From assembly GCA_048886185.1 (NCBI GenBank), contig JBHLKY010000010.1:138526-170525 (forward strand): DNA of 32,000 nucleotides, read 5' to 3'. Within the stretch, counting starts at the first letter, position 1, and each line of letters starts with the position of its first letter. The position numbers and the translations under genes were made by a program. Positions 15,406 to 18,951 of the stretch are shown one piece after another. The notes beneath the pieces were generated by a model that saw nothing but the letters and a program-made list of their open reading frames with translations, was not told the DNA's origin and ran no database searches. Origin of the DNA: Candidatus Hermodarchaeota archaeon (lineage in GTDB: Archaea; Asgardarchaeota; Heimdallarchaeia; Hodarchaeales; Hodarchaeaceae).

Positions 15406-15822
15406 TCAGGCTTCTCTCCAATCCCATTTACCTGTTTTTAACCACCGACAGTAAGCCCAAATCCATGTTTGAATCATAATTGCGGCATCATAAGCTGTAT
15501 ATGAAAAATGCCAGTCCTTTTGAGGTCGGAGGTAACATATTTCTGTATGGCCATATTTGTCTGTTCTATGAATGTGGTGTGTTTTTGCTGCTAACCTTGG
15601 TTGGGTAATCCATGCCCGAGGTGGGGCTGTTGGATAAGTGTGAGGAAATTCGATTAAAACCGAAAACACTCCACATTTATAATGTCCAGTAGTAACATAT
15701 TTAACTTGGACACAGATATTTCCATTTTCCAATCTGTAAAAATCTTCTCTACTTAAAGAGGGGAAGACTCCTTGTAATTCATGAAGCTCCTGTTCAACAG
15801 TTCTGGTACGCATCTGTCTCAC
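15406..15822 (-). CDS. Prokaryotic E2/UBC-fold protein, paralogue B (catalytic Cys present)
   Basis: IEFPHTYPTAPPRAWI, HHIH...EICYL and W...TW..AY..W.KTGKW; likely ATG start at 15813. Confidence 0.82.
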   Translation of the reverse strand: MRQMRTRTVEQELHELQGVFPSLSREDFYRLENGNICVQVKYVTTGHYKCGVFSVLIEFPHTYPTAPPRAWITQPRLAAKTHHIHRTDKYGHTEICYLRPQKDWHFSYTAYDAAIMIQTWIWAYCRWLKTGKWDWREA

Positions 15823-16260
15823 TTATCTTAATAAATGATCCCAGAAACCTGCTTCTGGAAAGTCCCAATTGCCCGTTTTAGTCCATTGACAATATGCAGT
15901 AAGCCATGTTTCAATAAGTTTAGCTGCTTCATACGATGTAAACCGTGGGTACCAGTCTTTCTTAGGACGCAAATAACAGATTAGTGCATGACCTTCTTCA
16001 TCCCATTCATAGACATGAGGTACATTTTGAGGAATTTTAGGGTTTTGGATCCATGCTTTTGGAGCGCGGAAAGGATAATTGTAGGGGTATTCAATCAAGA
16101 TATCAAACAATCCACAAGCATATTTTCCCGTCGTAATAAAGCTAACTTGAACACAATAATTTCCATTCTTAAGCTTGTGAAAATCCTTTTGTTTTAAATC
16201 AGGAAAAAGTTTTCGAAGGGGTTCTATTTCACGCTCTGGGATAGTCTGTTTCAATAACAT
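15823..16260 (-). CDS. Prokaryotic E2/UBC-fold protein, paralogue A (catalytic Cys present)
   Basis: IEYPYNYPFRAPKAWI, PHVY...LICYL and TWLTAYCQWTKTGNW. Confidence 0.82.
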   Translation of the reverse strand: MLLKQTIPEREIEPLRKLFPDLKQKDFHKLKNGNYCVQVSFITTGKYACGLFDILIEYPYNYPFRAPKAWIQNPKIPQNVPHVYEWDEEGHALICYLRPKKDWYPRFTSYEAAKLIETWLTAYCQWTKTGNWDFPEAGFWDHLLR

Positions 16261-16280: not shown

Positions 16281-17549
16281 TTACTTTTTAGATTCTTTTT
16301 CCTGATTTTGTTTATTTATCATCTGAGTACCATGAAAAGGACAATTCTTATCTTTTCCTAAGTCTTCATAGTAATAGAGTTCAAGCCCCTCAAATTTTAC
16401 TGACGAATTATCTTTTGTCATTATCGTTCGGTTAAACCACATATAGAAATTATGCGGAAACTGATATAGACCGTGTTTTATCTCTGTGAGAAGAACATCT
16501 AGACAAAATTTAGCAAGTAATACAGTTAAATTATCTATATCTAATCCTAATCCAGGTTGAGCTAGTTCTTCTTGTAATGTGCGATCGTAGCTTATTTGTT
16601 GTTCTAGTTCAACCATTGTTGGGATCGCTTGACTTTCTATACTTCCATTCATTCCTGGTTCAGAGTAAATACAATGGTAACAATAATCATCTTGTATAGG
16701 ATCAACTCTAAACATTAATCCTCCCTTAATCCCATCGAATGTTCCTGCATAGAGTACTGGAATCTTTAGTTGATTTGAATGGATAAAATCATTAATTTCA
16801 TAATTTACATCATGTTCCCCCGATACCGCAGCTATTAAATCAACCTCGTGGAGAATGTTGAAATAAAAGTCAAAATCAGCTTTGGTATGTAGATTGAATT
16901 TCTTCTCTACTGTTTTTATTCTCATATCAGGTATTCTTGCTTCAATATAATCTTGAACTGCCTTGGTTTTAAAGCGACCAAGATCAGCTAGATCACAGAT
17001 GTGCCTGATGATATTATGAGTTTCTAGTCGATCATTATCGATGAATATTAACTCCTTCACTCCTGATTTAGCGAGGTATAATGCTAATAAAGCCCCACCA
17101 GACCCCAAACCTATGATAGCAACCTTTTTTCCGTTCAATACCTTGATTGGAGTTTCTTTCTGATCAATTCGTACGAAAAGTCGACTAAGGTTCAAGTATT
17201 CAATCTCTACTTGTATATTTGAGTCTATAATGTCTATGTTATGAAAGATATCGGCCCTAAGGATTGATAAATCCTCTTTTACATAGACATGAAGATATGG
17301 ATATTCAATCGCCTTTGCTGTAATTATGGATTTTTCTACAGGTGTGTTAGAAATAGTTAAAAACCCTATTGGATATTCATTCTTTGATAAATTGAATCCT
17401 GTAAAATGGCATACAGTGAAATCATCATGAATCCTCCCATAAAGTAAATATGTTCTTTGATGAGATTTTAGATTATAAAATTGCCTTTCAAAAGAAGGAT
17501 AAATTATAATTTTCATGTATTTCACTTTAATCCTGACATCACTTTCCAT
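16281..17549 (-). CDS. E1/ThiF-family adenylyltransferase with an uncharacterised N-terminal domain
   Basis: VAIIGLGSGG, IDNDRLETHNIIRH, GRFKTKAV, CYHC and CPFH. About 125-aa N-terminal extension. Likely start is ATG 17516 (MKIIIY), 5 nt after the upstream stop. Confidence 0.92.
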   Translation of the reverse strand: MESDVRIKVKYMKIIIYPSFERQFYNLKSHQRTYLLYGRIHDDFTVCHFTGFNLSKNEYPIGFLTISNTPVEKSIITAKAIEYPYLHVYVKEDLSILRADIFHNIDIIDSNIQVEIEYLNLSRLFVRIDQKETPIKVLNGKKVAIIGLGSGGALLALYLAKSGVKELIFIDNDRLETHNIIRHICDLADLGRFKTKAVQDYIEARIPDMRIKTVEKKFNLHTKADFDFYFNILHEVDLIAAVSGEHDVNYEINDFIHSNQLKIPVLYAGTFDGIKGGLMFRVDPIQDDYCYHCIYSEPGMNGSIESQAIPTMVELEQQISYDRTLQEELAQPGLGLDIDNLTVLLAKFCLDVLLTEIKHGLYQFPHNFYMWFNRTIMTKDNSSVKFEGLELYYYEDLGKDKNCPFHGTQMINKQNQEKESKK

Positions 17550-18490
17550 AAAGGTTTCTTCATTATTTCGGGAACAGTTTCTTCTAAATTATCTTTGAGA
17601 AGTAGAAGAAACGGTTGAATTAGCTCCTCTTCATATAAAACATTAGCAGGGTGTTTTTCAATGGTAAACTTTCTAGATAGATCTTGTGAGGAGATATCGA
17701 TATAAATTTGACCATCTGGAAAGTTTGGTGGGAAGGAAATTAAAATTAGAAGATCTAGAATTCTGTTACTCCCCTGAGTTTCAATATCAACCCGAAACGG
17801 GAATGATAATATCTTTTCATCAAAGCTAGAGCCAATAAATTGATGAATATCCTTGATAGTAAATTGTGAATTAAAAACCTGTGTTAGTTCATGTTTTATC
17901 ATAGAGATTTGGCCTTCTGTGATCCCTGTCTCCTTTTTTGGTAAATCATCATCACCTGAAAAGAAGGAAATATTACTTTTTGGGATTCTATAAGTCCGAA
18001 AAATACTTTGTTCTTCCTCTTCAAGAGTTTTATTTCTTTGATATACTTCAACTATTAATTCATGATCTTCATCTGAGAAAGCATCGAAAATTATAGATAA
18101 AACAAGGTTTTTGTGAGGATTGAGTTTAAAGAATTCCTCTATTTGTTTATGATCCCCATAACTTGGCCCCCCATATCCGAGATGCTTATGCCAATTTCCA
18201 AGATAGAGCAATTTCTCATTATCTAGCATAAATCTTGCGTATTCTGGATTTATTTCAAAGTAAGAACTATTTCTCACACAATATTCATCTGATGGGATTT
18301 GTGTTTTCTCAATTTTAATTTCTAATCTTGATTCTACTTTCGTGATCGTTCCAAACATCATGCCCCCTGTTTCCTTCCTAGCCCATTTGGTACACTCTTC
18401 AAGCATCTCATCAATCATTCGATTAGATAAAGAGATAAATATGGATTCAGCTTGATTCTGAAACAAAGATGAAGTCTCCTTCCGATTCAT
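17522..18490 (-). CDS. JAB/MPN+ metalloprotease fused to a Cys-less UBC/RWD-like domain
   Basis: ETGG...LGNWHKHLGYGGPSYGD (E, HxH, S, D intact); C-terminal LLILISFPPNFP resembles the UBC/RWD FPxxYP turn. Confidence 0.88.
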   Translation of the reverse strand: MNRKETSSLFQNQAESIFISLSNRMIDEMLEECTKWARKETGGMMFGTITKVESRLEIKIEKTQIPSDEYCVRNSSYFEINPEYARFMLDNEKLLYLGNWHKHLGYGGPSYGDHKQIEEFFKLNPHKNLVLSIIFDAFSDEDHELIVEVYQRNKTLEEEEQSIFRTYRIPKSNISFFSGDDDLPKKETGITEGQISMIKHELTQVFNSQFTIKDIHQFIGSSFDEKILSFPFRVDIETQGSNRILDLLILISFPPNFPDGQIYIDISSQDLSRKFTIEKHPANVLYEEELIQPFLLLLKDNLEETVPEIMKKPLWKVMSGLK

Positions 18491-18524
18491 TGTTAAAAGA
18501 GAAAATAAAGAAGAAAATAAAATA

Positions 18525-18626
18525 TTAATAGTGTTTAGCTATTGGAACAGTATCTTTGTTTTCTTCGGCATCTTCTGTCGCTTTTTCTTTAGATTCAGTG
18601 TCAACTCTCTTAACTGGCCTTGGCAT
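18525..18626 (-). CDS. 33-aa peptide MPRPVKRVDTESKEKATEDAEENKDTVPIAKHY, first gene of the JAB-E1-E2-E2 operon (not in the ORF track)
   Basis: Hand translation, ATG 18626 to TAA 18525. AGGAG lies 11 nt upstream and the stop is 34 nt from the JAB start on the same strand. Confidence 0.7.
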   Translation of the reverse strand: MPRPVKRVDTESKEKATEDAEENKDTVPIAKHY

Positions 18627-18795
18627 TTTAATTTAAACTCCTAAAAACTACAATTGAAGGGAAAAGACAACCATTTATTAATCTTTAGTTATGAGAACAA
18701 GGAATTTAGATATTAAAAGATAACTGAATCAAAAGTTAGAAATGTATTATAAAATTAATAGAAATCAGGAGACTAATAACAAATCGTAATATAGA

Positions 18796-18951
18796 TTATT
18801 TTTTCCGTCGAAACGTATATCTTAACTCTTTCTTAAGCTCATTTTGTCTTCTTAATAGCTTGTGACGGGCTTTAATCCCTGTTACAGTCTGTAATTGCCT
18901 ATCAATTTTTATTAGTTCTTTCTGATAGAATTTATGTTTATCATTTGTCAT
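18796..18951 (-). CDS. 51-aa basic helical protein MTNDKHKFYQKELIKIDRQLQTVTGIKARHKLLRRQNELKKELRYTFRRKK (not in the ORF track)
   Basis: Hand translation; AGGA upstream of the ATG; helix-turn-helix hairpin-like composition. Confidence 0.55.
   Translation of the reverse strand: MTNDKHKFYQKELIKIDRQLQTVTGIKARHKLLRRQNELKKELRYTFRRKK

Follow-up and report, generated by a model that had tools for sequence, protein, structure and literature searches.

The DNA analysed here is a stretch of 32,000 nucleotides (the window) from the Asgard archaeon Candidatus Hermodarchaeota archaeon (order Hodarchaeales; assembly GCA_048886185.1, contig JBHLKY010000010.1, positions 138,526 to 170,525 of the forward strand), whose genome assembly is 4.8 Mb and 96% complete. 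The subject is a small open reading frame (ORF) on the minus strand of the window whose translation is MPRPVKRVDTESKEKATEDAEENKDTVPIAKHY. It is the first of five co-oriented genes, which encode in order the peptide, a JAB-type metallopeptidase, an E1-like enzyme and two E2-like proteins, E2a and E2b. The features of this cassette are as follows.

18525-18626, minus strand: 33-aa peptide gene, stop included, with an MPR(P) head, a D-A-x-G centre and a P-x-x-K-H-Y end
18638-18642, minus strand: AGGAG ribosome-binding site, 11-nt spacer to the ATG; AGGAG or TGGAG at the equivalent site in orthologues
18673-18687, minus strand: candidate archaeal promoter, BRE/TATA-like TAAAGATTAATAAAT, 47 nt 5' of the peptide ATG
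18491-18524, minus strand: pyrimidine- and T-rich spacer after the peptide stop, 28 of 34 pyrimidines, possible partial terminator
17522-18490, minus strand: JAB/MPN+ metallopeptidase (Cap3-like) with a C-terminal UEV/RWD-like domain, 322 aa; PADLOC JAB 1e-11
16281-17549, minus strand: E1-like adenylating enzyme, ThiF fold with a 125-aa N-terminal domain, 422 aa; Pfam ThiF 3e-25, PADLOC E1-E2 1e-28
15823-16260, minus strand: E2-like protein a, CBASS-type, 145 aa; PADLOC E2 1e-8
15406-15822, minus strand: E2-like protein b, paralogue of E2a (about 50% identical) with the Cys retained, 138 aa; PADLOC E2 4e-8

The ORF, its ribosome-binding site and its leading position in the operon had been pointed out in an initial annotation, and all three can be read directly from the sequence. 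An in-frame stop lies three codons 5' of the ATG (stop-to-stop segment IKMPRP...), and a longer ORF is therefore impossible. ORFs of such size are common by chance, with 144 of at least 25 aa in 14 kb of the window, so that gene status rests on comparison across genomes. The peptide has no match in Pfam, NCBIfam or PADLOC. It is highly charged and contains no Cys. The annotation had described its core as acidic, probably disordered and Pup-like; disorder is consistent with the predicted local distance difference test (pLDDT) values of 42-48 that the peptide receives in co-folded models, but with 8 acidic residues, 7 basic residues and 1 His its charge is mixed rather than simply acidic.

The BRE/TATA-like element is a candidate promoter by position and conservation. 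It is near-identical in 12 of 12 orthologous loci, and the DNA further upstream is unrelated between loci. The 34-nt pyrimidine-rich tract noticed in the annotation is confirmed in composition, with T runs that reach only T4 in this copy and T5-T8 in most orthologues. Its length is less secure, as the JAB start may lie further on. In the region 18464-18490 (minus strand) the orthologues keep a purine-rich ribosome-binding site (GGAAGGAG here), a TTG at 18466-18464 and then a conserved LFQNQAE. Judged from this alignment, the true JAB start is probably the TTG at 18466, 24 nt past the ATG at 18490, and the spacer between the peptide and JAB would then measure 58 nt.

Conservation and linkage within the genus

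Orthologues of the JAB gene are present in 12 of 21 other species genomes of the genus and in none of 39 other genomes of the class, and 378 other Asgard genomes gave only one weak JAB-domain match. A comparable ORF of the same 33 codons stands directly 5' of JAB in every orthologous locus that extends that far. Copies were counted with a degenerate DNA pattern for the N-terminal third of the peptide. One copy per genome was found in the 12 genus genomes (the source genome included) that have JAB together with its upstream DNA, and none in the 9 genus genomes without a JAB match or in the 39 other genomes of the class. The exception is genome G017, in which the contig ends within JAB and the position of the peptide is not covered.

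The peptide is conserved to a greater degree than the enzymes behind it. Protein identity across the genus is 85-100% for the peptide, 46-65% for JAB, 53-72% for E1, 62-79% for E2a and 71-85% for E2b, which is the best-conserved enzyme of the cassette. Variable nucleotide sites in the peptide gene number 8, 4 and 30 at the first, second and third codon positions, respectively. The proportions of nonsynonymous (pN) and synonymous (pS) differences, calculated by the Nei-Gojobori method over nine loci, are 0.040 and 0.612, giving a ratio of 0.066, while the corresponding ratios for JAB, E1, E2a and E2b are 0.45, 0.34, 0.25 and 0.18. Synonymous sites in the peptide gene have diverged almost as much as those of its neighbours and the protein is nearly frozen. 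On this comparative evidence the ORF is a real gene under strong purifying selection.

Only the five genes form a conserved unit. No flanking gene of the window recurs at the other loci, and in Hodarchaeales the neighbours of the cassette are unrelated housekeeping genes. By gene order, the peptide-JAB-E1-E2-E2 cassette moves as a unit between unrelated neighbourhoods. Upstream of it the window carries a 51-aa Lys/Arg-rich ORF (18796-18951, minus strand; starting MTNDKHKFYQKELIKIDRQ...), which has no counterpart at other loci and is therefore not part of the system.

The same comparison bears on whether the region acts as RNA or in cis. An RNA element in place of a gene was rejected, as no Rfam family or tRNA was found overlapping the peptide region, folding of the region is no better than that of shuffled sequences (z 0.67) and changes fall mainly at third codon positions. 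A cis-acting leader ORF, in which the nascent peptide would stall the ribosome and, with the T-rich spacer, tune expression of the enzymes without any function in trans, would account for a short ORF in first position with a T-rich tract behind it. We regard this as very improbable: conservation is as strong at the N-terminus as at the C-terminus, the C-terminal motif stands anywhere from 0 to 14 codons ahead of the stop among family members, the spacer shows no conservation of sequence, the folding test above gave no RNA structure, and co-folding gives some weak support to binding of the peptide by E1 (see below).

Reach and motifs of the peptide family

Homologues of the E1 with 36-47% identity occur in Nitrososphaeraceae and in several unplaced metagenomic lineages, brine metagenomes included, with GC contents of 27-54%. 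A small homologous ORF was found 5' of a JAB-like gene in all eight of the distant contexts that were opened. Examples are MPRPVKPIDTTEKEKAREDAEGNKKTVPISKHY, MPRPETQLDTENKDEADKDAYGDKVDPVGEHY, MPRPIPVMKIDVTDEVSPRTDAEGQTNKVPVTEHY and MPRTPEKAFDTDDKEEARKDAEGKTKQGRPEHW and, with a tail behind the motif, MPRPIS...DAYGKVEHTVPITHHY-NYRLKR and MPRDLKHV...GKVTIPNIKHF-YLLNDL. A search of 1.84 billion representative proteins with a profile of the peptide returned 12 matches, 11 of them small proteins of the same type (33-77 aa), and a scan of metagenome contigs with a gapped IUPAC pattern returned 28, made up of 11 true peptides and 17 out-of-frame chance matches. All 11 true peptides adjoin cassette genes and in 10 a JAB gene lies about 140-230 nt downstream; on contig L051 the sequence ends 170 nt past the peptide ATG and E2 genes are located upstream. 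Most gene callers miss this family. No other credible ORF of the source genome ends in the peptide motif.

The family comprises 29 distinct peptides. All 29 keep the MPR head, usually as MPRP, and a central D-A-x-G is common. The C-terminal motif is P-x-x-[KEDH]-H-[Y/F/W], with one variant, P-E-H-W. His32 and Tyr33 (or Phe or Trp) are conserved in every member, and conservation ends exactly there. The peptide stops right after the aromatic residue in 17 of the 29, and the remaining 12 carry variable extensions of 1-14 residues (S, RN, GN, F, M, LS, FNDS, YLLNDL, NYRLKR, YYFFNR, a 10-mer and a 14-mer) with no common length or sequence. By analogy, a sharp end of conservation at one residue, usually the last, is the pattern of the precursors of ubiquitin (Ub) and ubiquitin-like proteins (Ubls). 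A docking end for the proteasome of the HbYX type was rejected, as the Tyr is terminal and not penultimate in most members.

Two proposals for the C-terminus in the initial annotation can be judged from these alignments. The suggestion that the Tyr end itself is adenylated is the one favoured, insofar as His32 and the aromatic residue are invariant; the 12 extended members would need trimming first, and the adenylation itself is what we infer from the enzymes discussed below. The suggestion that JAB trims KHY to expose an Ala fails. Most orthologues have Ser at position 30, where Gly, Thr, Val, Ile or Asp also occur in the family, and the HY that would be discarded is the most conserved part of the peptide.

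One larger protein carries the motif internally. Protein P0133 (309 aa, L032:459-1388) starts with MPRPSKQ, contains an internal peptide motif (...ARPETQLDTGEKEQQDTDSYGDEVEPAGQHY) and continues with GGYVGG and a DUF4145-like domain of 130 aa. Its contig is just 1.5 kb long and the match is weak (E 8.5e-4). From its sequence, P0133 may be a fused precursor that is cut by JAB.

Enzymes of the cassette and their relatives

The JAMM residues of the JAB enzyme (E40, H101, H103, S110 and D113) are invariant in 16 sequences, distant ones included. Its AlphaFold model has a pLDDT of 84.5, and the best structural match is Cap3 in complex with a CD-NTase (9ild_A; Z 15.5, rmsd 2.3, 135 residues aligned), followed by other deubiquitinating MPN+ domains. 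Residues 187-322 gave weak matches to the UEV domain of Tsg101 (Z 6.5) and to an RWD domain (Z 5.9). A Foldseek search with the model found the MPN domain only, and comparison of the C-terminal domain with the E2 by hhalign was not significant (E 0.012).

When the E1 profile was compared with the PDB, Cap2 came first (3e-17), followed by MccB (1e-14), PaaA (4e-13) and then ThiF and MoeB. In the structure search the adenylation domain matched all E1s (MoeB Z 25.5, MccB Z 22.7, PaaA Z 21.8). Cap2 (7to3_A, Z 21.6) aligned over 324 residues, spanning 7-396 of the model, which is by far the longest alignment among the 50 matches listed, and it is the only one of these to reach the N-terminal domain, which it does with its linker region. 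A structure atlas likewise suggests the Cap2 linker for this domain, as no more than a lead (score 0.77). No RiPP recognition element (RRE) or clamp fold (RiPP, ribosomally synthesised and post-translationally modified peptide) was seen for the N-terminal domain among the matches listed, although this domain was barely probed, and hhalign comparisons of it with the JAB domain and with the E2 were not significant (E 0.4 and 0.26, respectively).

The zinc ligands of the E1 are conserved and the crossover loop has no conserved Cys, so that the E1 thioester step is possibly absent. The only conserved Cys that is not a zinc ligand is C185 (window 16995-16997); among 76 homologues 88% have Cys at this site and 9% have Ser. 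It adjoins the NxxR nucleotide motif and lies outside the crossover loop; from its placement, C185 might act as a catalytic nucleophile of an unusual kind or have a structural role only.

In the E2-like proteins H82 and C95 are invariant across 22 sequences that take in both paralogues and distant homologues, and the E2a orthologues on contig L027 carry the E2-CBASS domain PF26395. E2b always ends in W-D-W-x-E-A and E2a continues past the same E-A with G-[FVM]-[WLI]-[DN]-H-x-x; in the alignments the two paralogues thus differ by a short, conserved C-terminal tail. The E2 repertoire is much larger in GC-rich relatives (50-54% GC) than in Hodarchaeales. In two of these (L025:1-11299 and L029) four to five separate E2-CBASS genes, on both strands, surround a peptide-JAB-E1 core, and an integrase gene is found at the edge of L025.

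As far as homology can tell, the enzyme set is a split form of the Cap2/Cap3 module of type II CBASS (an antiphage signalling system based on cyclic oligonucleotides). In that system the CD-NTase has a disordered C-terminal tail, which Cap2, an E2-linker-E1 fusion (PMC10097602), adenylates and conjugates; Cap3 cleaves precisely behind the final residue of this tail, and the E1 cysteine of Cap2 is dispensable in vitro (bioRxiv 10.1101/2022.03.31.486616). The E1 described here has Cap2 as its nearest relative by sequence, and the Cap2 linker is what its N-terminal domain aligns with; the structure closest to the JAB is Cap3, and the E2s belong to the E2-CBASS family. In CBASS, moreover, it is a disordered tail and not a beta-grasp fold that is activated, and the candidate substrate here is of that kind. 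The differences are equally plain. The cassette has no CD-NTase or effector that we could find, and the tail is a free-standing 33-aa gene product; the SMODS CD-NTase family (PF18144) had no match in the source genome, 96% complete as it is, and none in the window or the related loci examined. The E2 is separate from the E1 and duplicated, and the JAB has an extra UEV/RWD-like domain. The peptide ends in His-Tyr, His-Phe or His-Trp where the CBASS tails end in Gly or Ala, the E1 has no conserved crossover-loop Cys, and the hosts are archaeal.

A further relative is the 6A-MBL antiphage system, an E2-E1-JAB triple fusion (NCBIfam NF058523). JAB, E1 and E2a each match the corresponding segment of the fusion, but at 18-54 bits against a cut-off of 320; they are separate proteins, and the cassette has no MBL gene.

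The position of MccB and PaaA just behind Cap2 in the profile search, and their high scores in the structure search, bring in another explanation for the peptide, namely that it is the precursor of a RiPP or cofactor. An MccB- or PaaA-like E1 would then act on its C-terminus or centre, JAB would serve as leader or follower peptidase, and the product would be a small molecule, as with microcin C, pantocin A or mycofactocin. MccA/MccB and PaaP/PaaA likewise pair an E1-fold enzyme that has an extra N-terminal domain with a short peptide substrate encoded alongside, and a short precursor in first position with a conserved C-terminal aromatic residue suits such a pathway; the mycofactocin precursor also ends in Tyr. 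We nonetheless consider a RiPP or cofactor precursor unlikely. The MccA/MccB and PaaP/PaaA pathways have neither E2 nor JAB, whereas the cassettes here always include one or two E2 proteins in which a Cys and a His are invariant, and we know of no E1-type RiPP pathway that needs E2 proteins. The core motifs of microcin C7 (a C-terminal Asn) and pantocin A (EEN) are absent or not conserved. The initial annotation had raised a pantocin-like EEN core, which the alignment of upstream peptides from homologous operons does not bear out: the C-terminus is conserved and EEN is not. This copy alone has EEN, others have EKN, EQN, EGN or YGD, E22 varies within the genus, and distant members lack EEN, their conserved centre being D-A-x-G. 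Conservation spans head, centre and end rather than dividing into leader and core, and the peptide is highly charged and free of Cys. The five conserved genes include no transporter, export, immunity or tailoring gene and the flanks are unrelated. The reach of the Cap2 linker into the N-terminal domain of the E1, with the limits given above, may also speak against a RiPP enzyme. The invariance of the E2 Cys and of the JAMM residues, the lack of transport and tailoring genes and the conservation of the whole peptide weaken the RiPP and the leader explanations alike.

The peptide as a candidate tail-only modifier

The operon arrangement of modifier, E1, E2 and JAB resembles that of Ub and Ubl precursors with a co-encoded JAMM protease, such as the Caldiarchaeum Ub-Rpn11 system (PMC6043591) and the bacterial Bil and Bub systems (PMC10557695, PMC11601596). 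There too the modifier is more conserved than the enzymes and variable residues may follow the mature C-terminus, as they do in 12 of 29 peptides here. The peptide differs from Ub, SAMP, ThiS/MoaD and BilA/BubA in that it has 33 aa, is predicted to be disordered and lacks the beta-grasp fold, which takes about 70 aa or more; the cassette has no beta-grasp gene. It also has no C-terminal Gly-Gly or Gly and ends in K-H-Y, or H-[YFW] in the family as a whole. Pup, in turn, ends in GGQ or GGE, and PafA, acting after Dop, ligates it by way of a Glu side chain; both enzymes are glutamine-synthetase-like. The likeness to Pup is limited to disorder and charge, each being short, charged and disordered rather than a folded domain; the two differ in chemistry, in enzymes and in sequence, as the peptide here ends in KHY and has E1, E2 and JAB as neighbours. 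We found no description of the peptide or of this type of operon in the literature searched, which is not proof that none exists.

We favour the reading, at about an even chance of being right, that the peptide is a tail-only modifier, which JAB would both mature and remove, E1 would adenylate and the E2 cysteines would receive. The initial annotation had proposed a minimal modifier or substrate of these enzymes, and this fits all of the comparative evidence; the chemistry would be as follows. The peptide would be ribosomally made, intrinsically disordered and about 30 aa long, a dedicated substrate of the four enzymes encoded behind it and a tail-only counterpart of ubiquitin. A conserved promoter of its own, at the operon head, would drive its transcription. 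Where an extension follows H-[Y/F/W], the JAB peptidase would cut it off and bare the aromatic C-terminus. The Cap2-like E1 would then bind the tail and adenylate the terminal carboxylate, the acyl group would pass to the invariant Cys of one or both CBASS-type E2s, possibly without an E1 thioester, and an amine on a target would finally receive the peptide. Reversal of the conjugation would again fall to JAB. The MPR(P) head and the D-A-x-G centre could be handles for the UEV/RWD-like domain of JAB, for the N-terminal domain of the E1 or for a reader. As to origin, the Cap2/Cap3 set of type II CBASS may have been taken apart, with a free-standing tail replacing the CD-NTase and its C-terminal tail.

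To the comparative evidence, co-folding adds weak support. The E1 dimer modelled with ATP and the peptide scored 0.44, and the best control scored 0.01. Runs agreed in at least 45% of contacts and the pLDDT of the partner was at least 41; no interface is reported. In calibration 58 of 80 solved complexes and 2 of 110 mismatched pairs attained the mark, but at scores of 0.60 or less only 7 of the 80 solved complexes did so, along with both of the mismatches.

Several points weigh against the tail-only modifier. On the calibration just given, a co-folding pass in this range would be wrong more often than right unless the guess was already likely. A bulky aromatic C-terminus is unusual for the channel of an E1, which normally takes Gly or Ala. 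Neither a target nor a reader or effector is encoded in the cassette, and the peptide has no Lys that the whole family shares. The E1 is clearly related to MccB and PaaA, which make small molecules derived from peptides. A variable tail after H-[YFW] would be expected as well of a mere binding element whose carboxylate is irrelevant.

The last point leads to the possibility that the peptide is a non-covalent regulator or pseudo-substrate, which gates or scaffolds JAB, E1 or E2 while the true conjugated substrate is encoded elsewhere. Extreme conservation over the full length would be in keeping with several binding partners, a motif that serves only for binding would be compatible with the variable tails, and what co-folding weakly supports is binding to E1 only. 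Against this, the cassette is accompanied by no second candidate substrate, the peptide ORF is the only credible one in the genome to end in the motif, the searches turned up neither a Ubl nor a CD-NTase, and conservation stops precisely at the aromatic residue, which is the true C-terminus in 17 of the 29 peptides. We judge such a regulator to be rather unlikely, though deserving of some weight.

The invariant MPR head is not explained by activation of the C-terminus and may be a handle or an acceptor site. The peptide could accordingly be the acceptor, with its N-terminal Pro (after removal of Met) or a Lys modified by the E2s, or it could be joined head to tail or cyclised. The head kept in all 29 peptides is in favour of such a role, yet a donor C-terminus would still be needed and the only conserved one is the peptide's own, and there is again no Lys conserved across the family. 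An acceptor role is improbable on this balance.

Applied to the whole family, the tail-only modifier would mean that several archaeal lineages, Hodarchaeales included, use a disordered peptide of about 30 residues ending in His-Tyr, His-Phe or His-Trp as a covalent protein tag, through an E1-E2-E2-JAB set; we put this forward tentatively, as somewhat less probable than not. To our knowledge, what is moved in every E1-E2 conjugation system so far described is either a protein of beta-grasp fold or, for CBASS, a large enzyme's tail. A free-standing substrate without glycine and without a fold, in conjugation of the Cap2/Cap3 type by E1, E2 and JAB, would be unprecedented. Ubiquitination would then be able to proceed without the ubiquitin fold or a glycine end, with E1/E2 machinery running on a bare tail, and a 33-residue tag with an aromatic end would be the smallest modifier known for E1-E2 chemistry. 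The range of substrates that E1 active sites are thought to accept would widen, and the Cap2/Cap3 module would prove reusable outside nucleotide signalling. Conjugates of the peptide forms ending in K-H-Y, if they exist, would be recognisable after trypsin by a diagnostic remnant, His-Tyr, on the lysines of the target (+300.12 Da, calculated), which makes the tag directly testable by proteomics.

The peptide represents an unannotated microprotein family in Asgard archaea and relatives of soil ammonia oxidisers, and Hodarchaeales are a group proposed as closest to eukaryotes. Candidate roles include antiviral tagging, proteostasis and others. The patchy, cassette-like distribution is compatible with a role in defence, which the Hodarchaeales neighbourhoods do not support. 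Genes of defence type are found near some of the distant cassettes, among them one for a TIR-NACHT-pentapeptide protein and a HEPN/nucleotidyltransferase (HEPN/MNT) pair with an Hcp-like gene (L030:7809-9173; L027:6755-7622), and these neighbours are suggestive only of such a role.

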